Source: an uncultured virus (IMG/VR IMGVR_UViG_3300035698_010745) (taxonomy: Duplodnaviria; Heunggongvirae; Uroviricota; Caudoviricetes). From it: a stretch of DNA of 64,000 bases. The DNA is taken from the IMG/VR virus record IMGVR_UViG_3300035698_010745, one strand, 5' to 3'. The number at the start of each line of letters is the position of its first letter. Position 1 is the stretch's first letter. Of the stretch, positions 6,495-45,360 are shown in pieces. The position numbers and the translations under genes were made by a program. The notes beneath the pieces are model-generated. The model was not told where the DNA came from. It searched no databases and worked only from the letters and a program-made list of their open reading frames with translations.

Positions 6495-7016
6495 CTCTTC
6501 CTCTTTCCAAATTCCTACGGAACCTCTTGGACACGAATAAGCGGCCATCCGTTCCCAGTGTTCCTTCGTCGCCGCATCTGTCCATTCCTGAATCTCACTA
6601 GCCGAAGTGGTACCCGCAGACAATGTCGCCTGCATGAACTTCATGTCCGTTTCGAACACGGCTTCCATAGCGGCCCGCTTCGCCATCTGTTTGCGAATAG
6701 CTTCGCTCGTCAAAGATGAAGACTGTCCCTTTGGGAGCGGGCTCCATCCAGGTGCGATTGCCGTGTTCATCTGTCATCACAATTTTCGTTACGGACGGGC
6801 CTGACGCCATGTCTATCCCGACGGACATTCCCCATTGCAAATTCTGCCCAGACAAAGATGCTTCCTTTTGGCACGGCTCCTGCATACTCCATCTCCTCCA
6901 CGCACAACGGACATTCCGGGGGAAGATTCAATCCCCATGTCGTCCGCGCCATAAGCGTCCTATGCGGGCACGTCCAAATCATGTATGGCTCTGCGTCTAC
7001 ACTTGGCATTCTCGAA

Positions 7017-7436
7017 TTATCCAGCCGTGCATTTCTTCGCCTTTCTAACGTGACCCTCCATGTACTTTTTGTACAAGGTCTCCACAAACTGAGGAAGCAC
7101 CCCCTCCTTGGCTGCCTCATTGACGGCGAGCGTCTTGCCACCCCGAAGCAATCGGTTCACCTCAAGGCTCTTGAGCAGTATCTGCCCTTCGCCTCGGACG
7201 GAGTGAACCAGTATCACCATGTCCACGGGAATCGCTCCCTTCACACAAGATAGCCAGCTCCCGATTTCAACCTCTGTGCCGGATTCGGCCATCTTCCCCT
7301 CATCATCATAGTCCACAAGTAGTGCTGCTCCGGTTGGCCCCCGTAAAACCACCCCGTTCGGGATGTCGGTTGCTTTGACTCCACGCGGCAAATCCACAAC
7401 GGATGCCTCCGACCGATATTGATACTTCTCTCCCAC
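7017..7436 (-). CDS. hypothetical protein
   Basis: 139-aa ORF with GAGGAG SD. Confidence 0.65.
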   Translation of the reverse strand: MGEKYQYRSEASVVDLPRGVKATDIPNGVVLRGPTGAALLVDYDDEGKMAESGTEVEIGSWLSCVKGAIPVDMVILVHSVRGEGQILLKSLEVNRLLRGGKTLAVNEAAKEGVLPQFVETLYKKYMEGHVRKAKKCTAG

Positions 7437-8119
7437 TCATTGCTCCTCGCTACAGATATTCTGGGTTTTCCTCATTATACACTCACAACGGCCTCTGTCG
7501 CCGGACAAATCGCAACAGACCCTTCGGGGCAAAGAGCGGGACCCCACTCCCAGCCACATTCGGGACACCAGCGATGACCACTAACGATAACACCGCCACT
7601 ATCCCTCATATCATCCGACCGTGGCTCCCCGCGATACCAGCAGTGGCTACACGCCGGGATGTTCTCAGGACCGAACGCTACATACTTCCTCATCGAAGAC
7701 ATACGCTTGTTTACAGGGCACAATAACATCTTTGGAATACATCCTCCTCCCCTTCATGTCCACAGCGGATAAGAAGTTCTGATTCCCACAATCACAGCGG
7801 TCCGTCATCCATGTGCCCTTGAAATGAGCACCGCACTTGCGGCAATGCCAAGTAACCTTCATGTGGGCTCCTCCTCGTTGCAAATAACAACCGCCGAAGA
7901 ATCATAAGGAATCCACATCTGCCTAAGAGTTCTCCCCATCCCGCAATCCAGACAATGCCCTGATAGGACGAACCACGCTCTATACAAATGCTCTGGCAAT
8001 GGGGACACGCCCGGACATTCCCCGCCCGAAAGGACTGCCCCTTCTCCCGATGTATACAGAATTCCTTGCACTCGAAACAGGGCCGTAACTGCCGCAAGCG
8101 GACACCATTACCCTTCAGG

Positions 8120-8491
8120 CTAAACACAGCTTATTTCCTCCTCCCAGATGATAACGGCACCCCCGCAAGTCAATCTCGTTGCAAGTTTCTGACGGCCCTT
8201 ACCCGTCCGCATCATTTCCCGAATGGGCTTCGGAATTGACGAGAAGCCCTCCCGCTTAACATCTGCGAGACTCACGCACCAACCTGCCCCGCACCCTTCA
8301 CAACAAAAACCAATCGTCCGGGCCAACGGGTTATCCGCAGACAAGATTTGCTTGTGGTAGCAATGATGGTAGCCGACGACCGTCAATAACTCCATCATGC
8401 GCACGGGTACACGCTCCTCATCCCTGACGAATACAGTATGCCCGTCATAGCCTGGAGGCCCTAGGGCACCTTGATGTCCGTTATAGCTCAC
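8120..8491 (-). CDS. motif-bearing Zn protein with T.KGR.KLA segment
   Basis: CEGC; MRTGKGRQKLAT then GGAVIIWEEE. Confidence 0.6.
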   Translation of the reverse strand: MSYNGHQGALGPPGYDGHTVFVRDEERVPVRMMELLTVVGYHHCYHKQILSADNPLARTIGFCCEGCGAGWCVSLADVKREGFSSIPKPIREMMRTGKGRQKLATRLTCGGAVIIWEEEISCV

Positions 8492-9186
8492 GGTATAGCC
8501 CCCAGGCCACTTCTCTGCATGAGGTCTTTAACGGGTGCTTCCCACTTCTTCTCCAACAACTTTCGATTCCGCTCCATCAGGGATTTATCGATTGAACCCT
8601 CCCTCTCGCAGAACGGTTTGCCCACGTGCTCCACCATTGCCCTGTGCAATGCCTGACCCGACCGAAAGCCCGCATCAACAAACTTCAGTCCGAAGTCAAT
8701 GTCCTCAAAGCCATACGCACCATCGAACCGTTCATCATACCCACCCAACGCATACCAAACCATCTTCGGCATGGCTGTATTGGCACTGGACCAGTACGCC
8801 CCTGGGATGCCAAAGATTTCCGACGATAACTGGACAAACACCCCATCCACCATCCGGCCCAGGATAAAGGGTCCTCGGGACGCCTGGACATCGTCAAGAG
8901 CCTTCAAGTGAGCTTCAACCCAACGTTTGCCCGTAAGCCTCATGTCGTCGTCCAAGAAGATAAGGGTATCTCCCGTGGCCAACTCCACTGCCCGGTTTAC
9001 CATTTGGACCCTATGATATCCTTCATCCTGTCTCCAAAGGTATCGGTCCCCACAGACCACAGGCTCTTGACTCCCATCATCTGCCACCACAATCTCCACA
9101 GGCACAGTCTGTCCCCGAAGCTGTGCTATCAAATCGTGCAGCATCTCTTTACGATTGTAAGTAGAGATAATCACAGACACTTTCAC
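8488..9186 (-). CDS. glycosyltransferase family 2
   Basis: VSVIISTYNR, VVADDGS, FLDDD, GGYDERF..YGFEDIDF. Confidence 0.92.
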   Translation of the reverse strand: MKVSVIISTYNRKEMLHDLIAQLRGQTVPVEIVVADDGSQEPVVCGDRYLWRQDEGYHRVQMVNRAVELATGDTLIFLDDDMRLTGKRWVEAHLKALDDVQASRGPFILGRMVDGVFVQLSSEIFGIPGAYWSSANTAMPKMVWYALGGYDERFDGAYGFEDIDFGLKFVDAGFRSGQALHRAMVEHVGKPFCEREGSIDKSLMERNRKLLEKKWEAPVKDLMQRSGLGAIP

Positions 9187-10154
9187 GTTGCCACCTCAAA
9201 TGGTACCCGTACCCGGCACGGAAGGCCATCCTGCACAGAGACAAAGCCCTCCGGGGTCTCTACCTGTTCATCCCAAGTGTAAACTCCCAAGAACGGCCAC
9301 ATTAGCCATCTATCACCGTGAGAGGCACATTCAGGACATGGGTCAAGGTCCGCGTCACCGACATAACCACAGATGTAACACCGCCCCAGCGTTGAAAGGT
9401 CTTCTTGTTCCACACAGGCACAACCCATAGGAACTATTGCCGACCGACCGCCACACTTGCAAATATACTCTAGTGCAAGAAGTCGCTTGCCGCATTTCCT
9501 ACAACGGACACGGCCCTTCTTCGCAGCCTCGGCAACAACTTTCCGTGCCCTCCATTGTTCCTCACTCATCAGCATTGGGAAACCTTCCTTCCCACAACTT
9601 GCTCATCCATCACGATAACTATACCCTCCGAGACATCTGCCGTGTTGTCCCTCCAAAGGTGTGACGCCTCCGGGTAACATCCACATGCCGCCCACTTGCG
9701 TTGTTCCTCCACCCACGGGCAATCACACATATACGCTGGACGCGAGCAGTGTCGACAGCGGCGTGTATTGAAGCGTCGGAATCGGGTCCGAAGCCAAGTG
9801 CTCAAGTTCGACCACCACGCTGCCACACGTCCACTTTGCAGTTTCCTCGCAAGTGTTCGGGTCTTTTCCACGATTGCACGAACGCTCACTCCCGATGGGG
9901 TCATACTCTGTACACTTCCTGTTTGGACATTCCCTCATTCAACGCCACACTCCTCAAGGATGCGGTCCATCTCTTCTTCGGAGGGCAGCTCCTCCCCTCG
10001 CTTTTTAGCCGCTATGTCGTCCAGGACGTCATGTCCGCCGGGGTAGGGAAGTGGTTCATCTGGATTGCCGTCGACAATAAAGACAGGACGACCGCCCCAC
10101 CTTCCGGCGAGTCCGGCCTTCTGATACTCCACCCTGGTCTCGCGGCGAGTCTCC

Positions 10155-10592
10155 TTACGGATGTTTGCCTGCATGTGAGCCCAGTAATCCGAGCTGACCT
10201 TGAGAGGAGTCTCCAGTCCGGCCCTGTCCGCAGCTTGTTCCAACTGGCGACGGATGCGGATGGCTACGTAGTTCTTTCTGCTCACCAGTCTCCCCATTGT
10301 AGAGCTTTGGAGTGGCTCCGGGAAACACCTGGTCCAGCTCGCCAGGCAAGTGCCACAACAACTCTCGCTCCTTCGTGGTGGTCACCCAGCCCTCTAAAAT
10401 CTTTCGACCAGCGTGGATATCGTCGTGACATGACGGACAAATCCATGCTCGGTTCCACCACCGGTTCCATTGCACGCCAATGTCTCTGCCGTGAATATGG
10501 TGCTCTACGAGCATTCGCACGGTATGACATATTGGGCATTCCCGGCTGCCCGACCTGGCGGCTTGGCGCTCCCCCTTCAAAGTCCTTCGCAT
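10155..10592 (-). CDS. HNH endonuclease-like protein
   Basis: CPIC..EHHIHG..N...ICPSCHDDIH. Confidence 0.75.
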   Translation of the reverse strand: MRRTLKGERQAARSGSRECPICHTVRMLVEHHIHGRDIGVQWNRWWNRAWICPSCHDDIHAGRKILEGWVTTTKERELLWHLPGELDQVFPGATPKLYNGETGEQKELRSHPHPSPVGTSCGQGRTGDSSQGQLGLLGSHAGKHP

Positions 10593-11434
10593 GAAGGGAG
10601 CATCTCAAAATTGTACTCCTCACGTCAATCTTTCTTCTGTGTCTTCTGTGACTATTATACACGGCCATGTCACCGTGCCGTTCAAGTGTTTTCCGTATCC
10701 ACCAATACAGGGGCATGACGCGAAGTACCCGAACTTAGCGGGTTCCTTCGTGCCCGGTTTCCGATAAACGGATTTCTCCTTCACGATTTCCTGCCCGCAC
10801 TCCGGGCACGTGCCTCGGACTATGGCCCATCCCCACGGCATTCCTCACTCCTAACGATAACAAGGCCCTCCAATTTGAAACTAACCTCTGCGCTTCGCGA
10901 ATTGCTCACCACCATTGTTACCATGCACTCCTTCGGAAATGGATTCGACTCCCGGTCTATAAAACGACCACACTCCTTGCCATCCCGGTAAACAAGGTAG
11001 AGGTTACTGTCCATAGACTGCCGAACAGCAACCAAGCCCCGTTCATAAAATACGTCCTCCAATGCCTCATCCCAGACAACGACGGCCCCCAGAGGGACTT
11101 CAGAACTCATCATGTCCTGATGGCAACACACCTTACCCTGGGACAACATACCTGTAATAAGCCCCATATCGGTTCCGCCGCAAACCTCGCAACACAGCGA
11201 GACCCTGCCAGTCACCGTCTCTGTGTCCACCATTATCGGCATCAAGGACACACACACTCCTCCCAAGTGAACACCGTCCCGTCCGGGTTCCAGTTCGTTG
11301 CCCAGGCGTGGGGCAACCTTTCGGCGTCCCTGCCACATGTCGGACAGACAATCCCGTCAATTAATTGCTCAGTACTGGCCCCCACTAGCGGCCATCTAAA
11401 TCTCACAACGGACAGGAAAGAGCCACAGCAACAG

Positions 11435-12058
11435 CTACTCTCCCTCTTCCTGTAAACGATTCTCTGCCCCCGCACTAGAAGACACCTCGTTTTTCCCGGC
11501 AATCATTCCGACATTATGATACGCCACACAGCCGATGAGACCGTTATGGGTTTTTCGAATCACCCGAACTTCTTCTCCATCCTGTTCTGTCTCTTCGGTA
11601 CGACGAGGCTGTTCGTCTGCGGGAAGAACCCGACAGAATACCCGATATACCCGGATAGCCCAGTCCATCCCCTCCATCATCGGAGCGTCATGCTTCCGCT
11701 CTTCAACCAAGAGTTGGACTTTCGCCATGTCCATGAGATGACCCCGGATACCGTCCAGGCCGCCACCAAATGATTGAATGAACCGGCTGGCGTCGGTTAG
11801 TGGCAACGTTGGGTTGATAGAGACTTCCCCAAATGGCAAGTCGAATCGTTCGGGCATCGGCCCCGTAAACTCCAACTTGCCACCCTCCTTATTCTTCGCC
11901 CAGGCTATCGGCCCCGGAAGAGGCTCGGAAGAGACAATCGTCCCTTTATCAATAATTTTCAGGCAATCGCCCTCAATGATGACTTCGACGTCTTTCTTTC
12001 CGCCGTCGTCCGACAATATAAGCTCCCGATACATTCCAGCCGTTCTTACACTAATCAT
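11435..12058 (-). CDS. hypothetical protein
   Basis: Likely start MISVRT after AGGAGG SD. Confidence 0.6.
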   Translation of the reverse strand: MISVRTAGMYRELILSDDGGKKDVEVIIEGDCLKIIDKGTIVSSEPLPGPIAWAKNKEGGKLEFTGPMPERFDLPFGEVSINPTLPLTDASRFIQSFGGGLDGIRGHLMDMAKVQLLVEERKHDAPMMEGMDWAIRVYRVFCRVLPADEQPRRTEETEQDGEEVRVIRKTHNGLIGCVAYHNVGMIAGKNEVSSSAGAENRLQEEGE

Positions 12059-12296
12059 CGTCCTTCCTCCTTTTTTCTCCACACAATAACGTAACAGAGA
12101 TGGTATCCGGGTCAAACGCTTGGCCCAAGTTCTCTTCGTCCTTCACCTTTACAACTCCCTTCGGAATCATCGCATCAGCAATAGCATCGAAAATCGCTTG
12201 GTCCTCAGCCTTCTGTATCGCAGCCTTGGCCCGGATGGCTTTCTTGTCGATGATATCGAATCGCCGCTGCTTAATCTCAATTAGCCCACTCTTCAT
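12051..12296 (-). CDS. motif-bearing small protein, possible capsid-protein fragment
   Basis: IKQRRFDII...AIQKAEDQAIFDAI followed by IPKGVVKVKDEE. Confidence 0.6.
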   Translation of the reverse strand: MKSGLIEIKQRRFDIIDKKAIRAKAAIQKAEDQAIFDAIADAMIPKGVVKVKDEENLGQAFDPDTISVTLLCGEKRRKDDD

Positions 12297-12379
12297 GGTC
12301 TATATACACCGCCCCGTTCGCTATAACCGAAACAATCGAAGCAAAGACATGCCTGTCGGTCTCTTCGATAATGGCTTCC

Positions 12380-12412
12380 CTGGCTGTAGGCTGGCTGTAG
12401 GCTGGCTGTAGG
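12380..12412. repeat. 11-bp tandem repeat x3 (CTGGCTGTAGG)
   Basis: Three perfect copies inside ORF 12277-12741. Confidence 0.95.
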
Positions 12413-13306
12413 CAATCGAGGACCTGTTCTTCATTATACACCACTGCGACATGTGGCGCGGCCAGTTCTGTTGCCCTCTCAAATATTACAGCCACGGACC
12501 CTCCCGGACATCTGTACGGTAGTTGGTGGTCATCATGCCCAAACATCCTCCTGTCACAGCAAAACACGTTCGGGAACATCCGGCCCGCATCTCTTCCATC
12601 CTCCCAATAGTAATGCCCCGTCCGAGTATCATACGCCACTGTCCGTTTGTTTTCCTTGCATACTTCACACCGATAAAGGTAGACCCAGACTTGCATCGGG
12701 TTATCCATCTGGCCGCTCCTCCATTGGGTACACCGCCCCATTCACACAAGCCTGCTGCGCCTTTACCATCCAACTGGTACACCGTTGCCGGGCCTTAGCG
12801 AAGTCCCGTTCGAGGCCCAAGTGCGGACACTCCACCAACCGTCCCTCCCACAGCCACTCGTCACGGTCACGCCACGGTATCGGCCCGCGCTCCTGATTTC
12901 TTCGTCCCCCGTGACGACGGCAGATGTTCGTTGCCATACAATCCTTACAGATTGCCTTCAATAAAACTCTTCGTCCCACGCAAACACCACTCCTTCCGGT
13001 CTTAGCCCCTGTCCACGGGCCAGCCTGAATGCATTATCCAACATGCACCTGCCAATGATGGTTGGAGGAAAATACGCCACTTCATCAATCGGGGTGATGG
13101 TCCCTTTCGGGCCATACCAAACCCTTCTCCCCTTCCATTCAATCTTGCAATTCGGACAGTACCAATGCGGCGTGTCCCCGTCGTACTCCACAGTCAGGGC
13201 GTTTTCCGGTGGCGGTAACAGGCAGGCACTACAAATCTGCTTGCCCTTCAACGCCTCGTTGGTGGCATGAAGCATTTTGAGGAACGCAGTATTGCTCTGA
13301 GCCATC

Positions 13307-13615
13307 TTATATCCTCAAGTTGAAGCCCAGGTCCGCCATGAGTTCTTCCTCCGTCATTTGGCCTACCCACTCCTCATCCTCCACTGTCACACAACCGTCC
13401 GACAGCTTGATAGTCGGGCAACTGGCAATCTCGAACGTTGGCACGACAATTCGTTGCCCCTTGAGAGTCTTGGCCTTCAACCACAGGAACCGGCGTCTCC
13501 ACGGTGACGAATACACTACCGCCCGGAACTGCCACCGCAACTTGATGGCCCGGACAATGCGGGCAACTGCCCGCAGGGTCACTCTTCCTGAGCGTTGCGC
13601 CGTTAGAACGAACAT
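13307..13615 (-). CDS. motif-bearing small protein, possible capsid-protein fragment
   Basis: GQRIVVPTFEIASCPTIKLSD then GCVTVEDEE; start uncertain. Confidence 0.5.
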   Translation of the reverse strand: MFVLTAQRSGRVTLRAVARIVRAIKLRWQFRAVVYSSPWRRRFLWLKAKTLKGQRIVVPTFEIASCPTIKLSDGCVTVEDEEWVGQMTEEELMADLGFNLRI

Positions 13616-15337
13616 AGAGCATCTCCCGTCCGCACATCTGGCATCGGAACTTCATCAATCGTTCTTTCATTCCAAATCACCACTATCCCTGGAATCTGTT
13701 CCCACTCCCAACACGCATAGGTGCAACAATTCAGGCAGCACTTAACATTCTGCTTCAACGGGCCGCTGGGGCACAGTACTCTCATTCCAAATCACTACCT
13801 CTCCGCTCGACATCATCCATTCCAAACACAAGTATCCCTTCTTGGGACCGTACAGCATCCCTTGACATTCATCCCGACTTAGGCAGTTGGAACATGTCCT
13901 ACCCGTGTGTTTAGATTGCTGGATGTATAACCTACCCACTCATCCTCCCTTTCATCCCAAATCACCACCCCTCCGGCAGGCAACTCCCAGAATAAACAAA
14001 TCTGTGTGTAATGCCGGTCTTGCACCGGCTTGACACAACTCTCCTGGATACCACAGTTGTAACAACCCTGGAAATCGTGTTCATTTGTCAATAACTTGCT
14101 CATCCCACGTCACGGCCTGTCCCTCCAACACTTTCGCTGTCTCCCATTTGGTCCCGAAGCCATGCGTCACCACCGGGCACTCGTCAGAATGAGAAGTCAG
14201 CATATGCTCTTCTGCTGCGTTATGCCCAACGAACGCACACGACGCCCCGCATTCACCGCACCGACAAATCTCCGTCAACTTGTGCTGTCTCTTCTTCAAC
14301 GTAAGCCGTCCCCTTGGGTACAACCATCCCGGTCAGAAACTCGTATCCCAATCTGGGCGGCAATTTATCCCGGCCCCATGCCCGAATCTCAGACAGGTAG
14401 TCCACCTCTTCCTTCCAGACCCAAGCCGTGCCCGGAGGCTGGTTCGCTCTCTCGCGAGTTAACCGGGCATCGCACGAATAGCACAGTCCATTGAACCTGG
14501 TTTGCCAAACCTGCTCGCACAGTTCACATTCACGTCTCACAGCGTTCCTTGGACAATTCCAATTCATTCCAGATGACCGCCACCTTCTCTGCCTGAACTG
14601 CTTTGGTCATTCCATCACAGGACTCCTTGCAACAGGTGGTCCAAGTGGACGAGGGGGCCGCGTTAAACCATACATCGTGACACTTGAAACATGTCATGCG
14701 AGAAGGGCTCATGCCCGCTCCTCTTCCACAATCCAAACCGCTCCAGCCAGAATCCAGTCCTCCGGGCGCTCATACGCAACCCACCCAATATACTTGCCTA
14801 TATATTCTTCCTCTTCCTCTTTTATCCGCACGCATCCCTTCGGCGGGACCGTAACATCCCTGGGGCGTATCGGAAACTTCCCGACATAGCACGGAGGCCC
14901 CAGACTGAACTTCAGAACAAACTCCTCGTCCTCGACCACGACCACGCCGGGCGGGTTATCATGCGTGAAGTCCTGCATGAACCCACCGTGATAGCAATTA
15001 TCACACTGCATGATGCCCGCAAGGGAATCAGCCCATGCCCACTGGTTCACAACCCCGCACTTGGGACAAACAACGAACTTGGGTTTTTTAGGGGTTGGGG
15101 GCGTCTGCCGCTGGCCCAACGCGAAATCCCGCAAAAGTTGCGTCACCCTCTTCATAGACTGCCTCAATGTGTCCCCTCCCATCATCCCGAACTCCGAACA
15201 ACCCGTTCAAGATTCCCAAAAGTCCTACCCGGCAATTGCTGCCGTCTGCATCTGCCTGCACCTGGATAGTGGGATGCTGGGCCAACTCATCGTTGCAGGG
15301 CACCCTGGCTTCCATAAGGGCCTGCAACGCCTTCGGG

Positions 15338-33200: not shown

Positions 33201-33235
33201 GTCAAGAGGCAGGTATCTGTCAAGAGGCAGGTATC
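33201..33235. repeat. 18-bp in-frame tandem duplication
   Basis: GTCAAGAGGCAGGTATC twice (DTCLLT x2). Confidence 0.9.
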
Positions 33236-36200
33236 GTCACAAGATTCCTTGGCGATAATCTTCCAATAGAACGCACAATTTTCACAGCCTTTTTTCTCGG
33301 TTTTCACAATAATTCTTCTTGCCAGATAAATCCAACGCCTTGCGATTTAATGATGGTATATTCGGACTCGCAGTGGTTACAGGAAATAATGCAGGTGATT
33401 TCGTATTGGGTGAGCACGATACCGCCGGGGACAATTTCGGCAGGGTGTTTGCATTTAGGACATGGGATGATATTCGGTACGCTTATTTCTTCACACCATA
33501 TAAGGGCTGAGCGTTGGTGTTTCAGGTTGAGTGTGTAGCTTACCTCACAGTAGCCACAGAACAGTGCAAGGAGGATTTCATTTGAGCCGATAACCTTGGC
33601 ATGAGTGATTTCGGTGGGGTATTTGCAATCCGGGCATGGCCAGTAATCACTCATGGTTCATAGACTTTCAAATTGACAAGGCAAAACCAGGCCGCAAAAA
33701 TCTTCAAGAATTTTTCCACATTTGCGGCATTGTGCTTGTATTTGGTTGGGGTTGATTCGGTGGAGGGTAGAGTATGGGCAGATGTGTCGGCAAAAATATT
33801 GACGAATTTTCGAGGCTTTTTTGATGGGGACAATCTCTTCTTCCCAGGTATAGACGAGGCCGGGTTGACTCCATACGTGGGTGAATTCATTGTTGTAGCA
33901 ATCGGCACAACAATCACAATGATTGATGATTGTGATGTTGGGTGAGCCGCACCTGGTACACACGAAGGCGTCAGGGCAGCCGATTACTCCGAAATTTTTA
34001 TCATATTTTTTCATGCCAGTTCCTCATCCTTAGTAAACACACAGCCATCGGGGCATTGTGTCAGGTAGGCTATACACGCCAACTCGTCCGCTTGCGTACA
34101 TCTACACCGATTCGTAGGGGAAGAGTTGACGCCCGCTCTAAGGCCACAGGCGGTACAATACAAGATAAAATGATAAGTTGGCACAAGTTCCTCGTGCCAG
34201 ATATATACGGCCCTATTGGAGGGGCGAGCTGTTTTGGCGCGATGCCGCGAGAGTACTCTTGTTTGGCATGCGGTGCTGGCATTTGCGATGTGATACCAGA
34301 GATAGGCTTTCCCTAATACCCTGATAGCTTGGCCACAATTCAGGCAGATGTCATACTTCGTGTTAATCCAATTCATGCGGGCTCCTCATCCGCTACTACG
34401 GCAATGCGTGATGGTGTGGCGACGGTTGAGCCGAACAGGCACTTTTCTCCCCAGAGGTGGGTCCACATCATACCGTCGTTAGAGAGGTGTTTGAATTTTT
34501 CACGGAGTCTATCTTTGTGGATGCCGTCCTGGCAATGGGCACAGATGTCGAATGGGCCGTGACCAAACCCGTGACCAAATGACCCGGTAAACCTATTGAA
34601 TGGTACTGGCCAATTCATGCGAGTTCCTCCTCCCAGCATGCCCAGCCAGTAAATCCGTGGCACGGGTTCGCCTGCCGTCCCACTTCATAAAAGCACGTCA
34701 CTGCCATACTTGTGCAATGCACCCATGTCCCATTATGGCACAGGATATTTTCATGGCAATGAAGGCAGATGTCCCACGGAGCCTTTTGTGATTTTTCTGT
34801 GCCTAGCTCCTCATCGTAAACCCAGGCAATGCCCTTGGGCACCGTTCTGAGGGGTTCTCCGCAAGAATTACATGTGACATTGAGGGTGATGGAGTCCACG
34901 TACTGAGCACCTTGGACGGACGGCGCTCTTCCGCAGCTATAGCACCATGTTTTCCCCGCATAGGTCATACCCACACCTCGCAATCGCGTTCAAGCCGTTG
35001 CTCGCTCCAGTCGTATACCACGCCCATCGGTATCTGTATCTCCGCGAATTTGTACTTGTCGGTTTGGCCACAACAGATGCATTTGCGGCCTTCCTTGGAA
35101 TGGACTTGGGGTTGGGAGCGGTGGCAGAAGCAACATATTGTCAAGGATTGCCGGAGCGTGCGGTTGTTTTTGAGTCGGCGCAATGTCTCAATGGGCTTGT
35201 TAACGGGCTCCTCTTGACGTGTAACGATAGGAAGTGTGCCGTTTGAGGCGGGCTCTGGGTATTGATGGAGTGAGCCTGTCTTGCATAGGACACAGCGAAG
35301 CGTTCGGTTGACGTCGGTTTTGACGCTACCGAGCCAGCCGCACCAGTCACAATATCCCCGTTTGAAGCCCATACGGTTGTTCTCCCTGTACGATTATACA
35401 GCCTTGGGCGGCTTCGGCGGTACGGATTTTCATGGTTTCCCCGCGTAGCAGACGCTTCTTATTGACGCCGCATACCAAGTACCCGAATGACTTAGAGGTC
35501 CCGTCGCCATGCATCCAGTTGGGCTTTTCCATTTTCCAAGGGCCGGGAACACGTCGTAATCGTTCTGCAAACCAGATGGGCTTGCCACAATTACGGCACA
35601 GGTCTTTTAGAATACCCCTCATGCGAGCCGTTCCTCTTCAATGTCCACGGCCCCGATGGGACCTCGGCGGCGGCGTGTCAGGTGCCGGAACCGTCTCCAT
35701 AATGACACATCCCATACAAGGCGCTCCTCTACTACCTTGACCACACCTTCGGGTGGCTCGCCTTCCATGACCTGCTGAAAAATAGCGTCGGCCCTTGTCG
35801 CGTTGCCCAGAGTCAAGACGCGGGGCCTCCCTCCCATGTAATGCCAATCCACAAGAGCGCCCAGACGTCTGGACGTCTCCCGGCACCAGCGTTCTACGTC
35901 GTCCTTCTCGACATCCCCGAGTACGGCGATACAGGCCCCCTTGTCATAAATCCGTTGGTCGCATCGGTTCGGGTTCATGTTGGCTCCTCGTGGCTGATGG
36001 CTACGGCTCTACCTGCCGGGGTTGCCTTGGTTATGTTGCCTGCGCAATGCTCAATGAGGTTATCGGGCGGCAATCTATGTACCCAGAAGTCGTCATGGTG
36101 TCGGGATATGCTTGTGGCACAATGACGGCACGTATCGACATGTCGTGGCCGTTGAGGGACTCGGCGGAATCTCCGATTCCCGAATTCCTCACATCTAACC

Positions 36201-39200
36201 CGAACGGGGAAACGACCATTTTTGTCAGCAACAGGGCCTTTGGTGAGTATCCCACCGCAGGTGCCACAAGAGATGGTCACCTTGGGGTCGGTTGTGATTG
36301 ACATAGGGCCATACCAACCACAAGTAGGACAGAAACCGGGGGTAGTCACACCGGCTCCTCTTCTTCCACATCCACGGTTCCGACGGGCACATATTGGTCA
36401 CAGACAACGAGTCGCATTGTCCGCATTGGGCAGTTATTTTGCCACGAACAGGAATCACAGTCACGAATGGTTTTGCCCATGCGCCTGGCTTCGTGCTGGA
36501 GTTTCCTAAATTTGGACCAGTTCACGCTGGCTCCTCATCGTAGACATGGACATACCCTATCATGGGCTCTGCGAAGTGTTGCGCTCTGCCTCTACAATTT
36601 CTAATTTCCGAATTGACGTGATACCAAATCCCGAGGGCAAAATTGGGTAAAATGGGGTGTGAGCAGTGTCGACAGATGGACCGCCATTTCCAGTTGTCGA
36701 GATTAACCTTCACGCGGGCTCCTCATGTTGGACCAGGCCGTAAGGATACGCACAACGGGCTGCAAATTGGAAGACGGTCATGCCAATGGTGAAGTGTGGC
36801 ACCGGGTTATCGGTGCAGATGAGGCTCTTCCCCGAGGTGGTTCCCAACGGGCCGTACTGTATCTTCACGTCGAAGTTCCCATCCGTCCTTGGGGTGACTT
36901 GCAGGGACGTGATGATGTTGCAGCCGCAGCGGTTGCCGTACCGGTCACTGAAAAGCATCAGGTGCCTCATGTGTTGCGTCATGCTTTTCATACTCTCTCC
37001 TCTTGCCAAGTTACGGCAACGCCGAAAAGGGCTTTCGCCTCGGTGATAAACGATTTCCAGTTGCGGCCAAGGATATTTGGGCATCGGCGTTCTTGGTTAT
37101 AGGCATGAACATACTCGCCACCATCATCATCGATGCGCAAGGATAATCCACAGTGGGCACAGTTTGGATGGAGGGTATTCACGCTCGCTCCTCGGCTCGT
37201 ACAAAGACAAGGTGATTCTGTTCGCCCTTGGGTGGGTCGTGGTTTAGAAAGCCTCCACACGTTCCGCATTGGGAAGGGTCATTCCACTTGAGACGGTTGT
37301 CCACACGATAGCTGGACTGGCCACTACCATCCTCTCGCAAGATGACGATGGTTTGCTCGCCGCAGTCCTGGCATCGGGCGGTTTGTGCTACACCGGGCAT
37401 GGCTCCTCGTTCCAGGGTATGCCACAGCCTTTGGGGACAGCTCTGCGGCATGCCTTGTCGGTGGGTTGATGGGGCATCTTGGAGATGGGGCAGACGTTCC
37501 ACATGGATTTGTAGATGGCGCATTGCTCACAAGTTCGGATTTCCTCGGGTGGAGCCTTGTCGTATAACCAGTTCATTTCGGTTCCTCTTTTCTTGTATAG
37601 ACGACATTTTTAGGGCAGAAATGTGAGCACTGGGCCATCCCGCTCAGCAAGAGGCTACAGCATTTTTTGGCACGCCAGCACGCCGCGCAGGGGTGGGCTG
37701 AAGGCTTGAGTTGGTTCATTTCGGTTCCTCCACCATAAATCCTCTGACGGTGACGCCATTGACGAATCGGATATATGCTTCCTCTCGCACACCGTGGCCA
37801 CAGCAAGCGTTATCTACTCCTGGCAATTCACCCAGGCATAGGTCGGCATCGCCCTCATTGGAGCCCTGGAAGGTACGACCACAGCGTTTACAGGGCCGGA
37901 CAACGCCATCGAAACTGGCATGCTCGTGAGTGTCTTCATAAACCCATCGGCCTTCGGGGTATTCCCCTTCGTAGATGATGGGATGGCCTCTAAAGAATCC
38001 GCGCCTCATGCTGTTTTTTCCTCCCAGATAACCACGACGCCTTTGCCGTCTACTACCCACGCGACATGGTCTGAGCCGGGCACATTGTCATGGACACAGG
38101 TACAGTCATCGAAGATAATTTCGTCTCTGATATCGGTATGGATTTCGCCCTTGCATTGACGGCAGTGGTGGACTTCAGCAACGTAAAGCGCATCTATGAG
38201 CCGTTGGTTGACGCTGGCTGGTACTCTAGCTTGCGTGCTCACAGCTTGCGCTCCTCCCACACGGTGACCAGGGGGCTGCCCGTAACGCTTTCCACAAAGA
38301 CTCCACTCATCCCTTGGTTGAAGTGTCGGCAGTCATAGTCATGGGGGAACGACTCGATGACGCCATGAAGCGACGCTGGTATCCAGGCTGACGCCTTGCA
38401 GTGGGTACAGCACAGGTCCAGGCCACCTCGGGGCGGGTCAAAGAACTTGAGGAGATGCGAGCAAAATACTGGAGGTGGGGTAAAATTGCGTTTCGGTATC
38501 ATGTTGTCTCTTCCTGATAAGTTCTGACGGTGCCTGCTGGGCACCATACCTTGACGAATTCCCGATGGCCGCAATCGAAGCAAGACTTGTTCTCGGCCCG
38601 GAAGACGTAGCCCAACTTGGGGCTGCCACACATCGCACAAACGTTAATCTTCCGGTTCATGCTGGCACCTCGGACATAATCATTACCACTGTGGCATTTG
38701 CTGGCTTCAGGAACGCCTCCCTGCCCTTGTAGGGGCCTGACTGGATGATTCCCATGCAACACCCCTTGCTGTTTTCAAGAGGCTTTCCTGTGGGCATTAT
38801 CGTGCCGTGCGTGACGCGGGTCCGTGGCCCCATGATAACGACTTCCTTACCGCAATGCCGACACATCTGTTTCTTTCTCATACGGCCTCCTCGTCACGCA
38901 CCCGTACCAGGCCGGGCATAGGCCACACTCTTAGGCGTGTCGCCCGGCTACGTGGGCAATGGGAGCAATAGTTAGCCAGGACGGGTGGCTCTACGGCATT
39001 GTCGTACCCCGCAGCCATGCGGACCATGACGGTTCGTCTGCAAGCCGGACACCATGCCGTTCCTGTATAGCTCATGTGTCTGAGGAATGGCGGGTTCATA
39101 TGAGTTCTTCCTCTATGATGACCACGGGGTCGGATATGGTTGAAGTTGGCACCTTGTGAGATTCCACATCCTCGACCTTGATGATATGGCCGCAGGTAGA

Positions 39201-40027
39201 ACAATACGCGAATCCGGTATACATCATGTCTCTTCCCACACAATCCCTGTGCCCCTGGGGACCTGGCAAACACATTCTACCATCTGTCCATTCAGTTTCA
39301 CTTGCTTCACAGGCATGTTGTTCTTATTCATTCGCACCCTAACGCGCCGGTCGCACAATTGCGGATGGCCTAATGCTGCACACGAATCGCAAAGCCTTTC
39401 AATATCGACCTGTCTCACAGCGGATAGCCGCAATTTGCGCATTCAGTTGGCCAGATGACTTCTCCGGCAATGATATTAGAACGAGGTGCTTCCCCGCACT
39501 CGGCACAGTCCCGAGGCTTAGCATTAACTTCAACCTTCTTCGCCTCCCATCGGTCTGTGAATCTTCTGAGACATTGACGACACGGGTTGGCCCAATTGTC
39601 CTTGCCATACGGTTCATAAGGGGCTCCGGTATGATGCTTCACAGCGTGCTTGCATGTCTGGCAAGCGGGATAGTCCAACACGGGCTCATCCTTCGGCAGC
39701 CCACCGTCAGTCCGTATGCGTCGTGGAGGCGGATGGGCTGGCGGCGGTGGAGTGCCTCCCTGTCCTTTCGGCGGGGGCGGTGGAGGTGTCGTCGGTGGAT
39801 TGTTCACGCCTCCCTTTCTGACGAGTCCCTCTTTGATTTCCTTCTTCATCCGTTTGCCTCCCTGAAGTGTTTTAGTTCGGTTTTGACAGCCCCTAATTGT
39901 TCTGCCATGCCGTCAATCCGGTCGTCGACACGGAAGTTGCCATCCTTGATGTCGCTCAAGACCAGCGTGGCTTCGGCTCGGACTAGTTTCATGCGAGCCT
40001 TAAGCCGCCTGTGGTGTTCATTCTTTG

Positions 40028-40357
40028 TCATACTATCGGCTCCAGGTAGTTCACGGGCTTGCCCTTGCTTTCTGCGTATGCGATTTCCTGACGAGTCGAA
40101 TCGCCGATGTAACCCCTTACGTTTATCACGAACAGCTCGTCGGCCATGTCAATCTTGGCAAGGTGGATTTCGTCCATGTGTGTTGCACAGCCTTCTATCT
40201 CGGCTTGGTGGTGTGAGGCTGACAAGTACCACCCAGGCAGCAAGTGACAGCCCAACGTGACGACGTCACCATCGCGCTCCATTTTCCACATCTCGACAGC
40301 CATCACGTCGATAAACTTTGAGCTTCCTGAGAAGCATACGACCTTAAACTTCTTCAT
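40028..40357 (-). CDS. nucleoside 2-deoxyribosyltransferase-like protein
   Basis: VCFSGS.KF, HLAKIDMADELFVIN..GYIGDST..EIAYA...GKPV.YLE. Confidence 0.7.
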   Translation of the reverse strand: MKKFKVVCFSGSSKFIDVMAVEMWKMERDGDVVTLGCHLLPGWYLSASHHQAEIEGCATHMDEIHLAKIDMADELFVINVRGYIGDSTRQEIAYAESKGKPVNYLEPIV

Positions 40358-40875
40358 ACCGATACCTCCTGATGAGTTAAGGCTGCACCGGGCGGTACCG
40401 GCGTGCCTGTTCTGTGTTTGTTGATGCACTTACAATCCGTCATACCGCCGTCCATGCCGTTCAAGTAACACTTCTGGCCACAGGCTCTGCACCACATGCG
40501 GTTGGCAACTTCGTCGGGTGGTGGCTGCAACCAAGCCCACACTACCACTTCCTCCTCCCTACCAATGAAGACCACGCCGTAAGATGGGCACACATAGAGT
40601 GATTTACCACAGCAATCACTCAGGTAGAAAAGGATGCTTGGCTCATCCCGCGTGACCATGTCGACCAACCACAGCTTACCGCACGCGGGGCAATAGGCGG
40701 GGCCAGTGTACTTCTTTAGCATGGCTCCTCCTCGGCCACACAAACGACGCTGCTGGCACTTTTCATAAACAGGCCCAAGTCCTGCTGGATGACATGTCTT
40801 ATCTTGCGCGGGTTGTTGCACAGCACCCATTCCTTGCCGCATCCGCTATATGCTTCCCTGTCAAACATGTTCATG

Positions 40876-41253
40876 TCAACGCCTATCTATCACTACCTTG
40901 TTGACTACTTTGCCGCTGAACCACTTTACTGTAAAAGCAGTGGCAACATCCGCATCGAAATCCTTGCAGGAAAAGATATTCACATACACCGCCCGCAGTG
41001 TGTCCAAGGTGTGAATCGTGATGTTGCTCGTGAGGATAAACTGTATCGCACTCGTGCCCTTAGTGTGAGGCGAAGTCTGCTTCTCCTCTTCCGGGACTCC
41101 CACATCATCCCAGAAATGCATCTCACATCTCTGCATGTCAATCAGACTACACAAGTTCTCAAAGTACCGAGCAATACCATGTCTCGTGAACACCACAACA
41201 TCGCACTCGTGCAAGTCCAATATTAACTCTTTACCATATGCGTCATTTCTCAT
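40876..41253 (-). CDS. speD: S-adenosylmethionine decarboxylase proenzyme
   Basis: YGKELILDLHEC, GTSAIQFILTSNITIHT, YVNIFSCKDFD. Confidence 0.85.
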   Translation of the reverse strand: MRNDAYGKELILDLHECDVVVFTRHGIARYFENLCSLIDMQRCEMHFWDDVGVPEEEKQTSPHTKGTSAIQFILTSNITIHTLDTLRAVYVNIFSCKDFDADVATAFTVKWFSGKVVNKVVIDRR

Positions 41254-43436
41254 GTGGCTGCTCCTTAAAAATGAAGGCCGAACCATCAGGCACAAGCGTT
41301 GGGAGGCTGATGGTGCATTGACATTGGTCCTCAATGGCTATTGGCTCTTTGCGTAGGCCACAAACGAGACACCGAAAGCGATTCCGACGGACCATTTCGC
41401 CCAGTACGGACCTATGGGATATTTGTATGCAGTCGTTTCTGCTCATGCCTGCTTCTCGCATCCGATAGCAACACTTCCTTTGGGTGGCTCTACCGCTCGA
41501 ACGGCACTCCGCATCCGTCCCCCCAGCGATGTCCCGCAGGGATGTGGGTGAGATGTCCACCCTCCGCATTCCTCATCCGTGTGTTCGTTGATGTCGGACT
41601 TGCAATCTGCTTGGGGATGCTTTTGGAACCATCTGTTAATGTAACCGCAATCCAAACAAGTCTTCACCACTTCGATGTAGACACTCATGCCTGCTCCTCC
41701 TGCCAGATGAAAGAGATAGGTTTCACACATCTCCCCACATTATGACAGACTTACCGTCAACACCCACCGGTCCTGTTAACCGCAACCCGGCCCTGGAGGT
41801 GGACACAATGACCTTTTTCGAGCCACACTTCTTTGGCTCCTTACGCGTCGGGCATCGGTTTCTTTTCTTTTTCGGCATACTGCTCCTCCCTGTACACATA
41901 GATTATACCCTTTTTACGGAACTGAAGCGTCGTTTCTTTGCTGCCACAGCTTGAGCAAATCTGGCCAGCCGTCTGCTGGGTAGGCATAGAATGGATATGG
42001 ATGTATTGAAGCTTGTGGCTACCACATTTGTCACAGACGGCGATAAGTTCCCCCGAAACCGGGTGGAAGAATGGAGGGAAGTTAAATACCTTGCTACCGA
42101 TTGAGATATTCAAGTTATTCACGCCTTTCGCTCCTTTTTGGGCAAAATGACGCCCTTGGGGACCCGTTTGGAGCACGGGTAATGGCTCAGACCACGAGAA
42201 TAACACTCCAGAAGGCGTTGACACGTCCGGCAAGGCCCACGTGGGGGTATGGGCGGTTTGGGCAGCATATAACCCATTACAGGGCCTCCTCGTGCCATAT
42301 ATGGGCTACGCGGCACGGTACCAAGGATGGACCGGGGCAATCAGAACCGCAATCAGGGCACAGATTTTTAAGAGGAGGATGTAACAACTCGACAGGGCGT
42401 CCGCACTTGCCACAAACGGTCATGTATGGCGTCAACGTGCCGTCTTCGACCTCATTCTCCATTATGGTTGTTGGCATAACTGCTCCCGGCACAATCCTTC
42501 TGACATAGCTCCTCCTGCCAGGCGTTCACTATGCCATGCGGGGAGACTTGGCACAACCAATCCAAGCCTCCACAATCACAACACGTCCATTCATTGTTGA
42601 CTCCCTCCCATTCGACGCATCCGCAGAAACACATCCGTGTCACGTATCCGTTAGACTCTACACTCGTTCTTAACATAAGCTACTCCGTAGGGCATCAGCT
42701 TGACATCCACCTTATGGCCACACTCATCGCACCAATGAGTCACGTGTGGGAAATGGATATGCCGAATGGGCGCTTCTTTACACTTGATACACGTCGCACG
42801 CACTGGCACCGTGGCAAGTTCCTTTACGTTGAGGCTCTTCATCAATGCAGATAGATTGGCGATGAGTGGGCTCCTCATACGGACTCCTCTTGCCAGGTAT
42901 AGACACAGCCTATGGAGTAGCGTATCTCACGAGACACACGGCTTCCGCAATCCTTGCACTTGCGTTCGAACCATTGGTCCATCCGCCATAGATGGATTGA
43001 GCCGCACTCCGAACAAATATCCACTCTCGCACTCACATGGGCTCCTCGTCTTCGATGTAGGCCGCTCCGAGTGGGGCACCCTCGACCTGGCATTCGCGCA
43101 GACATGTAGCCCTCACCGGAATGGTGACGATGTGCAGGTCAGACCATTTCGTTTTCTCCGTCATCGAGTCCCCACATTGGTTCTGCCGGACTGCCGATAA
43201 CCTTCTCGCTCCACGGTAGGCCGTCAACAAACCACAGGAGCGGATTAGGGCCGTCCATCTCTTCCCATTCTATACACATGGTCAACTTAAGAGTAACAAA
43301 CCAGACAATAATACCCTTCCAGTTGGTATCCAAGCCTTCTCCTTCTACCCAATAATCCTCAATTCTCCCAATCCTGCTCCAGCCAGGGCCTGTAGCCATA
43401 ACCGGCATCCCCAATCCTACGGGCCTTGGCAAGTCG

Positions 43437-43838
43437 TTATAGTGTATCAGTTTCATTACCCCTCCTTGCATGTAAGGAAGGGCATGTTGGGCTGTGAATC
43501 CGAAACCTATTTATGGTCGTGGCTTGTCCAGTGTCGAGTTCCTGCTCACTCCATGTCCTCGGTATGTCGTCCGGGGGCAAGTTCTGCACGTTCAATTGTA
43601 CCCTGTTCTTCCTGGTGCTGCAATCTTTGCAGATGGGAGTACCCTTGCCAATCCAGAACCAGCCACTACCCTTGCCAATCCAGAACCAGCCACATTTCGG
43701 ACACCAATACAACAAATCCGGTGTGTCTACTATGGGGCGGACCATTGCCGCAGCCAGGTGCTTACGGCCTTCCGATGTGGACAGTATCCGGGCTATGATG
43801 TCGTTCTTCTGACATACCGAACCAGATTTGCTGCTCAT
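43437..43838 (-). CDS. Zn/motif protein with possible capsid N-arm fragment
   Basis: IIARILSTSEGRKHLAAAMVRPI, CPKC/CKDC, VQNLPPDDIPRTWSEQ. Confidence 0.6.
   Translation of the reverse strand: MSSKSGSVCQKNDIIARILSTSEGRKHLAAAMVRPIVDTPDLLYWCPKCGWFWIGKGSGWFWIGKGTPICKDCSTRKNRVQLNVQNLPPDDIPRTWSEQELDTGQATTINRFRIHSPTCPSLHARRGNETDTL
43640..43693. repeat. 27-bp perfect in-frame tandem duplication
   Basis: TACCCTTGCCAATCCAGAACCAGCCAC x2 (GWFWIGKG twice). Confidence 0.95.
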
Positions 43839-44691
43839 GCCAGACGATTACCTGCCTTCCCGGTGGAGGTTTGAACGATTCCAGGCGGCCAGCACAGCGC
43901 GGGCAATAAGCCAACCCCTCAGATATCGTGTTCCAGCCACAATTACAGCCCTGGAAACGGTCCTGACTCAACAGTCTCATCCCACACCTCAACGATGCCC
44001 AATGGTAGGGGCTCGGCCACGCGCTCGGCCATTGGACTTGAGCCAGAGCCATGCGACCCTTGCCCGTGGATAGCCGGGCAATTCTTTCGGCCTTGGCTTG
44101 GTTACAGGCTTTCTTGTCCGGGTTCAACACGGGCCGGTATCGCGAGCGGGCTTGCGCCGGATACCGTTCTCCATCTCGTCGATGTAGCCCTGAATCCGAT
44201 TCAAGTCATTGCCCCGCGTGTCATCGTCACCCTTGGCTTCGTCATATTCAAAGGTTTCGGTTGAACCTCCACCCGAAAAACGAACCAACAATCCCCCATG
44301 CCCGGACATCTGTGCGTCCTGCTTACGGCACCAGCACACATTGGTGACATTGATAGTGGTTCTCGCTCTGTCGTACAGCCTCATAATTACTCTCCCAATC
44401 CCCACTGGACTCCACCCGCATCGTATACCGTTCCCTCGCTGACAAAGCGGAGAAGGGCCGATTTGCGGACATATCTCTTTACTCTCCAGGCTTTCCATCC
44501 CTGGCACCGGCCCCGCATCCCTACCCACAAGACATCAGCGCCACTATGGGACCGTGTGACACTGCACCAGTTCTCGGCGACCTTGTAAGGGCCATGCTTG
44601 TTGTATTCATCGAATAACTGGCGAGCCGTCATCGTGTTCTTTCGCCCGGCATGCCTCGGTTTTCGGCCCTTGAAGGCAATCATTCGTGTTT

Positions 44692-45353: not shown

Positions 45354-45360
45354 AAGTTCT

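Follow-up and report, generated by a model that had tools for sequence, protein, structure and literature searches.

The stretch of DNA described here, 64,000 nucleotides (nt) from an uncultured virus of the Caudoviricetes (IMG/VR record IMGVR_UViG_3300035698_010745) and called the window throughout, reads as the accessory-gene region of a large phage. Its minus strand carries nearly all of the genes up to about 60.3 kb, and between about 6.5 and 51.2 kb that strand is crowded with some 80 small open reading frames (ORFs), most of which carry a CxxC...CxxC motif together with a common C-terminal motif that we call the tag. A unit in this array has the constant tag at its C-terminus and, ahead of it, a variable portion that is usually a CxxC...CxxC zinc ribbon. 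Our main result is that diverged pieces of a major capsid protein (MCP) of the HK97 fold, of the type found in phage G, have indeed been built into several of these genes. Individual ORFs are named below by their first coordinate.

The window was searched for MCP pieces through its 1808 six-frame stop-to-stop segments of at least 20 amino acids (aa), plus reversed copies, 215,634 residues in all. The reference MCP is gp27 of Bacillus phage G (P0001), which was found via tblastn of ORF 13307 and translated, and a hidden Markov model (HMM) was built from 98 phage-G-type HK97 MCP homologues. Run against all segments and the reversed copies, this model finds ORF 12051 at E=8.5e-7, ORF 43437 at E=0.002 and ORF 13307 at E=0.0026; at 2 bits or more it has nine matches on the minus strand, one on the plus strand and none in reversed sequence. 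The nine pieces correspond to MCP residues 7-34, 48-66, 81-104, 104-143, 112-123, 143-179, 181-203, 205-231 and 227-263, which is nearly the entire protein, with the N-arm, both E-loop strands, the spine helix and C-terminal strands all represented. With gp27 itself as a BLASTP query, the six best matches are all forward minus-strand segments and together span MCP 8-264: 12051 (E=5.5e-5, MCP 105-149, 38% identity over 45 aa), 13307 (E=0.014, MCP 81-104, 50% over 24 aa), 43437 (E=0.082, MCP 8-34, 48% over 27 aa), 43943-44101 (E=0.73, MCP 49-70), 14709 (E=1.4, MCP 228-264) and 14253 (E=1.4, MCP 184-229). The first reversed control reaches E=1.8. When we speak of the N-arm, E-loop strands, spine helix or C-terminal strands of the MCP, the names follow what we take to be the general HK97 fold.

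A PHROG scan of 17 ORFs placed 12051-12296 on the 'major head protein' family phrog_2522 (profile positions 141-177, E=0.0035) and 13307-13615 on the adjoining positions 116-141 of the same profile (E=0.22). Pfam gave a weak encapsulin match for 12051 (Linocin_M18, E=0.053). Pfam is insensitive to this type of MCP: even gp27 of phage G reaches no more than 25 bits with PF05065, so the scarcity of Pfam matches among the fragments says little. For specificity, 235 minus-strand array segments (234 of at least 55 aa and the 52-aa relic at 43946-44101) were compared with the PHROG families. Besides a 'portal' match that lies on the NUDIX domain of a NUDIX ORF, only 12051 matches a virion-protein family, which argues that the material is capsid-specific and not a general scrap-heap of phage genes. 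In sequence 12051, 43437 and 13307 are significantly similar to the phage-G-type MCP family (phrog_2522 / PF05065). None of the ORFs encodes a complete chain of about 280 aa in which N-arm, E-loop, P-domain and A-domain follow one another; each ORF holds 19-45 MCP-like residues, and the pieces lie in 12-17.7 kb and 43.4-44.1 kb, out of order. They are 38-50% identical to an MCP family whose 120 members, among the matches listed, are at least 74% alike. The fragment-bearing ORFs are best regarded as MCP-derived proteins and not as MCPs.

An earlier note on this DNA had proposed that fragments of an HK97-fold MCP are scattered through the array, on the strength of a string of capsid motifs. Those motifs occur in order in phage G gp27 and match it closely, and the peptides that it quoted are all present in the ORFs to which it assigned them. 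Five of the nine ORFs that it named are supported, one is suggestive and three are unsupported. The HMM E-values given above bear out 12051, 13307 and 43437, so that three of the four ORFs on which the proposal had been staked (the fourth is 17395) resemble the MCP significantly. The other two supported ORFs are 12277-12741 and 43762-44130, both described below, and the suggestive one is 17395-17733. No MCP support was found for 8120-8491 (GRQKLA), 17730-17948 (LKGWSVF) or 43033-43230 (IPVR), the last of which shares a paralogue motif, (V/I)PVRATC(I/L), with the neighbouring ORF 42651-42878 (minus strand). The description 'capsid-derived' is supported by similarity to HK97-fold MCPs that is significant and partly colinear. 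Three fragments were absent from that account: 14253-14567 (MCP 181-203), 14709-15185 (MCP 227-263) and an out-of-frame stretch at 43943-44101 (MCP 48-66).

The clearest piece lies in ORF 12051 (12051..12296, minus strand), an 81-aa protein without a zinc ribbon. A stretch like MCP 104-143 at 12159-12278, which scores 25.9 bits with the MCP HMM, is followed by a tag at 12132-12188 and then by LGQAFDPDTISV. A phmmer search with 12051 against 1.84 billion representative proteins returned 15 at E<=0.001, namely the query, 12 relatives of 60-181 aa and two repeat proteins (P0124 and P0133), which were excluded by eye. Nine relatives (P0122, P0123, P0125-P0129, P0131 and P0132) keep the order helix, tag, 'LGxxFDPDTISVETL' at 40-66% identity. 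The pattern IKxRRFxIxD...AIQxEEDxxIF followed by VPxGxVxVKxEE is present in 12051 and its relatives; the family-invariant residues F13, D17, E31, D32 and F36 are the MCP-invariant F111, D115, E129, D130 and F134 (phage G numbering), and E54 is likewise invariant in nine sequences.

A profile made from ORF 12051 and eight metagenomic relatives was then compared with 177,635 distinct PDB sequences. It has one significant match, chain A of 6WKK, which is gp27 (E=1e-9, family positions 5-53 against MCP 101-149), and the next match is at E=0.81; in three IMG/VR records the profile matches MCP genes only, at E=1e-13 to 1e-14. That gp27 alone is found in the PDB argues that the spine helix with its tag is a conserved family and not debris, and since related viruses keep this capsid piece as well, the piece probably serves a purpose of its own. 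With the family alignment, AlphaFold2 (AF2) predicts a confident helix at residues 18-42 (pLDDT about 92). In the ESM Atlas the nearest named clusters to 12051 are capsid families at 0.82-0.85, under the 0.9 bar and so a lead only. A homologous-protein search with 12051 returned only itself, and a related-locus search of IMG/VR with 12051, the sliding clamp described below or P0126 returned nothing.

A second copy of part of this module can be recognized next to it. The C-terminal module of ORF 12277-12741 (12286..12387, minus strand) comprises the second half of the spine-helix-like segment and a tag (REAIIEETDRHVFASIVSVIANGAVYIDHEEW), and residues 119-152 of the ORF match the 12051-family HMM at family positions 24-58 (E=4.5e-5, 17.5 bits). 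We read it as a half copy, paralogous to the 12051 module. Plain BLASTP of 12051 against 12277 finds no match, and the link is visible only with the family HMM, which confirms the pairing of 'AI..E/TD..VF' helices that had been made earlier between these two ORFs.

The MCP segment that precedes the helix is found about 1 kb away. The frame 13307 (13307..13615, minus strand) holds a stretch like MCP 81-104 (RIVVPTFEIASCPTIKLSD, at 13397-13468), which resembles an E-loop strand, scores 14.1 bits with the MCP HMM and is directly followed by a tag-like DGCVTVEDEEW at 13367-13396. This frame overlaps a zinc-ribbon ORF (13374..13670, minus strand; CQMCG...CPHC) with a tag at 13494-13550, and sliding codon-usage scores in a three-frame view shift from the zinc-ribbon frame of 13374 to the MCP-like frame of 13307 at about 13490-13580. 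An assembly error behind the frame switches was considered and rejected, since an independent 1683-nt contig and the contigs of sequencing runs show exactly the same layout of 13374 and 13307.

The halves in 13307 and 12051 abut exactly at MCP 104/105, and three tagged units lie in the kilobase between them. The MCP-like part of 12051 begins right after the stop of the upstream unit, whose tag is encoded in another frame by the first six codons. In the window the E-loop strand and helix are split by about 1 kb, whereas in the metagenomic proteins P0130 and P0135 they are continuous ('VPTFEIAS.PTIKLSEIK.RRF...EED..IF'); 13307 matches these proteins at 62-68% identity over 22-24 aa (E=1e-4 to 4e-4), and 12051 matches them at E=3e-11 and 4e-10. 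The derived motif PTIKLS[DE] is common to 13307 and the metagenomic MCP-like proteins, and CPTIKLSD is identical in 13307 and P0134. One of the units between the halves, a zinc-ribbon/tag unit at 12958..13305 (minus strand), is 60% identical to residues 1-75 of P0126 (E=1e-32), while residues 89-133 of P0126 are 69% identical to 12051. P0126 is a homologue of 12958-13305 fused to a 12051-like module, and P0132 is a zinc ribbon and tag joined to the helix module; related genomes thus combine the same modules differently.

Small or truncated MCP-like proteins of metagenomic origin are the closest kin of the array pieces. P0134, P0136 and P0137 are 'half-MCP' proteins of 171-185 aa with an N-terminal extension, an N-arm, an E-loop with an insertion and the spine helix, which is nearly the last element of the chain, and the same C-terminal end in two of them suggests that they are probably complete. 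In P0130 (146 aa) a twin-arginine-like signal (RRNFLK; Pfam TAT_signal, E=0.012) is followed by a stretch like MCP 88-143 and then by one like MCP 44-64 (GRRLFMVDELPQGAYARYEKD), in permuted order.

Two neighbouring units begin with an N-arm-like segment. ORF 43437 (43437..43838, minus strand, 133 aa) has a helix like MCP 7-34 (QKNDIIARILSTSEGRKHLAAAMVRPIV) at 43728-43811, which scores 14.2 bits with the MCP HMM, followed by a zinc ribbon and a degenerate tag. Between its Cys knuckles, at 43600-43690 (minus strand), there is a tandem duplication of eight codons (GWFWIGKGS GWFWIGKGT). ORF 43762 (43762..44130, minus strand, 122 aa) has an N-arm-like start (AERIARLSTGKGRMALAQ), a zinc ribbon and the tag PPPGRQVIVWHEQQ. 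It is a paralogue of 43437, which BLASTP matches along the whole length (E=1e-5, 31% over 114 aa), and it matches the MCP only at E=18. The N-terminal helix common to the two is the product of a tandem duplication, so these are not the unrelated units that the earlier note took them for. Another frame of 43762-44130 holds a relic at 43943..44101 (minus strand), in which VAEPLPLGIVEVWDETVESGPF at 43964-44020 resembles MCP 48-66 (VVDPLPQGALPVYDKDVDAKAF). The relic is 53% identical over 19 aa to the full-length MCP P0140, and codon-usage scores prefer its frame at 44040-43951. The same peptide also scores as a tag, at 15.5 bits with a tag HMM.

The other MCP-like pieces score lower. A zinc-ribbon ORF at 14253..14567 (minus strand) carries a tag at 14406-14462, a stretch like MCP 181-203 (YLSEIRAWGRDKLPPRLGYEFLT) at 14331-14399 and a second tag, VVPKGTAYVEEE, at 14283-14327, to be compared with KKVPQNTVYVLADPE in the MCP; its MCP HMM score of 4.8 bits (E=2.0) is not significant by itself and is counted within the 9:1:0 strand enrichment. 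ORF 14709 (14709..15185, minus strand, 158 aa, zinc ribbon; 3.2 bits, E=6.6) has a first tag at 14916-14954 and a stretch like MCP 227-263 (VGKFPIRPRDVTVPP...IGWVAYE) at 14769-14909, which is interrupted by a second tag (14811-14867), and a terminal third tag lies at 14718-14774. In ORF 17395 (17395..17733, minus strand, 112 aa) a stretch like MCP 205-231 (LVGKLWTADVWTDDRVKVP) at 17434-17514 is accompanied by a terminal tag-like PVGCVGAIMEE. At 5.0 bits and E=1.7 this piece, which had been singled out before for GKLWTADVW, is suggestive only. Finally, a stretch at 46790..46900 (minus strand) in the unit ORF 46670-46984 resembles MCP 143-179 weakly (2.9 bits, E=8.7, not significant); it would close the sole gap in the tiling of the MCP.

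The MCP-like frames look like coding sequence. Codon-usage scores for the annotated frames are +35.7 for 12051 (off-frames -37 and -38), +49.5 for 14709 (off-frames -57 and -51), +29.0 for 17395 and +13.1 for 14253, the off-frames of the last two being negative as well. The stretch 11900-15300 was found in several salt-lake metagenome runs of 2017-2019, identical wherever their contigs overlap, and no RNA runs are listed among the sequencing runs that hold it. Contigs from four DNA runs equal the window sequence wherever they overlap it, and therefore offer no variation for judging selection. A metagenome scan produced just the one 1683-nt contig, from the same phage. Its sole difference from the window is the loss of 11 nt at about 12859-12869, which splits ORF 12701-12979 in two. 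These 11 nt lie at a short direct repeat (CGTGAC CGTGAC), and the contigs of one run break there too. Recent local duplications are marked by tandem DNA repeats, 60-90% identical, at 25.1-27.4 and 29.6-30.7 kb. The array thus evolves via tandem duplication, frameshift fusion or fission, and indels.

The tag itself has the consensus [V/C]-P-x-G-x-V-x-[V/T/I]-W-[D/E/Q]-E-E. A strict seed expression has 30 matches among the 1808 segments, all 30 on the minus strand. A tag HMM taken through two rounds finds 79 copies on the minus strand at 6 bits or more, with two on the plus strand and one in each of two reversed sets; raising the cut-off to 8 bits leaves 75 on the minus strand and none in the controls. 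The 79 copies form an array at 6498..51165 (minus strand), most of them 3' of CxxC...CxxC motifs. In the aligned tags the conserved columns are P (55/68), G (65/68), V in column 13 (49/68) and the first E, in column 18 (67/68), and most tags lie 2-4 residues ahead of the stop, usually two. No curated family covers the tag. A strict back-translated pattern had three single matches in IMG/VR, about the chance number, and none in the window itself, so it was over-strict; a relaxed version, though not selective enough to scan a collection, matches the window at 10 sites versus 0 expected. Zinc-ribbon motifs, taken as two CxxC/CxxH knuckles 10-30 residues apart, are found in most tagged ORFs, with all Pfam zinc-ribbon matches below the gathering score and the PHROG zinc-ribbon matches sub-threshold. 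The ESM Atlas gave no named family for unit 20055.

The tag is also found at the junctions of larger genes. The LpxR-like ORF at 5565-6770 has about 90 in-frame N-terminal residues that close with a tag (CPRGSVGIWKEEE), directly followed by M-VDKRLITIPVVILMLAG, which looks like the real LpxR start with a signal peptide; translation may yield the tagged unit and LpxR both as one protein and as two. Likewise, the ORF of the NUDIX hydrolase at 49470-50051 (minus strand) includes an N-terminal Cys-rich unit with a tag (TPKGVVIVKNEE). One block of the array, 28001-34000, stands apart in composition, with a G+C content of 0.486-0.489 versus 0.50-0.555 in the remaining window and a GC skew of +0.12 to +0.16 versus negative values outside; its units are nonetheless on the minus strand. 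The tags of this block are of a distinct 'TTQEQKL' type, and the block may be of separate origin.

Several neighbouring genes have recognizable families. Pfam or PHROG matches identify LpxR (5565-6770, minus strand), a family-2 glycosyltransferase (8488-9186) and a sliding clamp (46985-48085; phrog_947, E=1e-22), and further matches are to DUF4031, AdoMet decarboxylase, two NUDIX hydrolases, GP88, a Macro domain and a phage metallopeptidase-like protein. An ORF like an HNH endonuclease lies inside the array at 10155-10592 (minus strand; three PHROG HNH families, E=0.01-0.017). Two proteins carry a prepilin-type N-terminal methylation motif (PF07963), one at 44692-44991 (minus strand, E=7.7e-9) and one at 22163-22825 (minus strand, E=1.9e-6) that also has a zinc ribbon. 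A transposase-like gene of 363 aa (45361-46452, minus strand; phrog_4285, E=7e-23; no Pfam match at E<=0.01) is also located within the array, and the N-arm-like units of 43.4-44.1 kb are about 1.3 kb distant. A tRNA search of the window found none.

How might capsid pieces have come to lie in such an array? The explanation that we favour, at a probability of about 40%, is that a truncated MCP paralogue was cannibalized by a shuffling family of small zinc-ribbon/tag genes, and that the pieces were kept as mimics of interfaces. The retained pieces would imitate elements through which MCP subunits contact each other, and such mimics would let the small proteins bind to MCP or to procapsids, whether those of the phage itself or of a co-infecting relative. 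The role of the tag would be that of an adaptor or docking element, strand-like and shared by all units. Its EE codons (GAGGAG) may in addition provide the following gene with a ribosome-binding site.

A number of results weigh against this explanation. Comparative evidence shows conservation for the 12051 module only, and not for 13307, 43437, 14253, 14709 and 17395, and two MCP-like stretches are now out of frame, as in decay. The AF2 prediction that gives the 12051 family its helix leaves the tag unstructured. Resemblance of the tag to a capsid strand, which the earlier note had placed in register with LPxGAxxxYD, is marginal and the evidence conflicts. A log-odds matrix of the tag run along phage G gp27 reaches at best 0.5 bits, equalled or beaten by 3751 of 5000 shuffles, and LPQGALPVYDKD scores -1.5 bits. 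Over full-length MCPs the best score of the matrix is 8.9 bits (P0140, ADLMIGFVVYEE), reached by 78 of 3000 shuffles. A BLOSUM profile-to-profile comparison is best at MCP 53-64 (13.8, reached by 38 of 5000 column permutations, p about 0.008) and second best at MCP 222-233, and hhalign selects MCP 218-231 (P=0.0096, probability 4%), a site that differs from the best of the profile comparison. Two of the three tests thus give p of about 0.01 for the proposed mimicry, the third is null, and a zinc-fold origin of the tag competes with it. In the CPxGC-type units, of which 13 were aligned (10 at 24.7-27.5 kb and three at 15.9-19.2 kb), column 8 of the tag is an invariant Cys beside an invariant RCxxC and a near-invariant CxC (at least 90%). 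In this subfamily the tag looks like part of a zinc-binding fold, which points to such an origin, and the invariant Cys speaks against descent from an MCP strand; the AF2 model of the subfamily is poor (pLDDT 60). By eye, a register can be drawn at MCP 53-64 with the 43943 relic and the 13374 tag, and at MCP 222-234 with the second tag of 14253 and the first tag of 14709. Such a register would be expected if the tag descends from an MCP strand, and equally if an MCP gene recombined at short stretches that resemble the tag. All in all, we consider it rather doubtful that the tag arose by descent from, or as a mimic of, an MCP strand.

The next explanation is a neutral mosaic, in which the array holds the debris of a duplicated MCP or half-MCP gene that fell apart during the expansion of the zinc-ribbon/tag family, and the surviving pieces are mere helix and strand building blocks without a capsid role. 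We take this possibility seriously, though we would not bet on it. The out-of-frame relic at 43943-44101, the frame switch of 13374/13307 and the disruption of ORF 12701-12979 by 11 nt in another contig are what debris would leave behind, and so are the scatter of the pieces, which are non-colinear along the strand (221-282, 181-233, 53-104, 104-143), and their low identity to an MCP family whose listed members are far more alike. However, the 12051 module is intact as a small ORF in at least nine other proteins with the MCP-invariant residues retained, the MCP-like frames have a strong coding signal, and no other virion gene has left fragments among the 235 segments.

Docking on capsids is not the only use to which such pieces might be put. 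They could be decoys or baits, MCP-derived peptides that occupy or titrate host sensors of the MCP, with the tag recruiting or neutralizing them. A variable N-terminal part on a constant C-terminal tag would suit a family of adaptors or baits, the MCP family concerned is unusually conserved and hence a good immune target, and the remaining region is made up of accessory genes of the host-takeover type. Host immunity does sense the MCP through Avs7 and Dsr1 (PMC13581612). Against this, the majority of the units are without an MCP piece, and a search of the literature in full text turned up no MCP-fragment decoys, nor any account of MCP-like proteins in small or truncated form, of capsid fragments encoded by phages or of the tag. 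We think that decoys are unlikely. A broader version makes the array a library of some 80 'bait' proteins, with hypervariable heads, some of them MCP pieces, and a constant C-terminal strand for docking, made to look like an edge strand of the phage's own MCP. If true, the tag would load varied small proteins onto or into capsids, or the library would show capsid look-alikes to host defences or to the assembly of rivals, and this would be a modular capsid-mimicry system not previously described. This too we find improbable.

The tag might instead be a device of gene expression, its codons (…TGG GAN GAG GAG NN NNN ATGA) providing a Shine-Dalgarno sequence and a stop-start overlap for translational coupling along the array, with the conservation of the peptide secondary and any MCP likeness a coincidence. 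An ATG lies exactly 5 nt 3' of the tag in 17 of the 79 copies, where it overlaps the stop as ATGA and GAGGAG is placed like a Shine-Dalgarno sequence, and the LpxR start codon comes directly after the EEE of a tag. As an account of the whole tag this is quite unlikely. P, G and V upstream of EE are conserved at the protein level, internal tags distant from any stop retain the Glu, and the 29.4-30.9 kb subfamily has QEQ (CAAGAACAA) with no GGAGG. Moreover, the GAG:GAA ratio at the tag Glu is 51:27 compared with 152:102 in twelve large genes (p=0.43), which is no excess.

The remaining two explanations have next to no probability. Chance resemblance of short motifs, the level at which 8120, 17730, 43033 and the tag itself do lie, is refuted for 12051, 13307 and 43437 by window-wide E-values obtained with reversed controls, by the match among all PDB sequences and by reciprocal phmmer matches to MCP-like proteins. 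A working capsid gene in pieces, reassembled at the protein or RNA level, would account for the tiling of MCP 7-263 with little overlap and for the junction at MCP 104/105, but the pieces are unordered, the N-arm and the half-helix are each present twice, and certain pieces are not in frame; every piece has its own tag and stop, and all have diverged much further than real MCPs do.

To our knowledge no phage proteins are more highly conserved than those of the capsid, which several known immune sensors of bacteria take as their target. Diverged capsid pieces that occur as separate small genes with the tag of some 80 neighbours suggest that parts of a capsid protein can be turned to new uses as independent modules, possibly for assembly interference, targeting or immune evasion. 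The region is also a natural example of new small genes built by in-frame shuffling of modules, in which fusions, fissions and frameshifts are still visible. For experimentalists, the spine-helix and tag family and the half-MCP proteins are concrete candidates for cloning.

The obvious system for comparison is the MCP of phage G, gp27 (6WKK; phrog_2522; weak PF05065), which the fragments match significantly at 7-34, 81-104 and 104-143 and suggestively at 48-66, 181-203, 205-231 and 227-263. Relative to MCPs of this type, the window is without a full-length protein and has 24-45-aa pieces in separate small ORFs, fused to zinc ribbons and to a tag that MCPs do not have. Phage G's own genome has a single MCP match, and the terms 'paralog', 'truncated' and 'zinc' do not occur in its genome paper (PMC12484599). 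The metagenomic proteins P0122-P0132 come closer, in that the module order of 12051 (helix, tag, LGxxFDPDTISVETL) is common to both. The array also resembles the small zinc-ribbon proteins of other phages (Lar-like, Zn_ribbon Pfam) in its CxxC...CxxC motifs, small size and early or accessory location, although about 80 copies in a single array are unusual and the tag falls outside curated families. In T4-like phages with split nrd or polymerase genes, near-normal colinear halves flank an inserted endonuclease gene. The halves in 13307 and 12051 are colinear too, but highly diverged, and the 1-kb insert between them consists of zinc-ribbon/tag units with no endonuclease.

Two further parallels concern function. 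The Gol peptide of T4 gp23 is sensed by Lit; together with Avs7 and Dsr1, it shows that short MCP segments or MCP folds are recognized by immunity, which is the premise of a decoy, but these are host sensors of the real MCP. In SaPIbov5 the satellite-encoded Ccm is a homologue of the helper's capsid protein that redirects capsid assembly (PMC8569155). Ccm is a whole HK97-fold protein, while the window holds only fragments with added tags. As a derivative of a capsid protein that is encoded outside the structural module and that interferes with capsid assembly or takes part in it, Ccm is nevertheless the nearest precedent for how the fragments described here might work.

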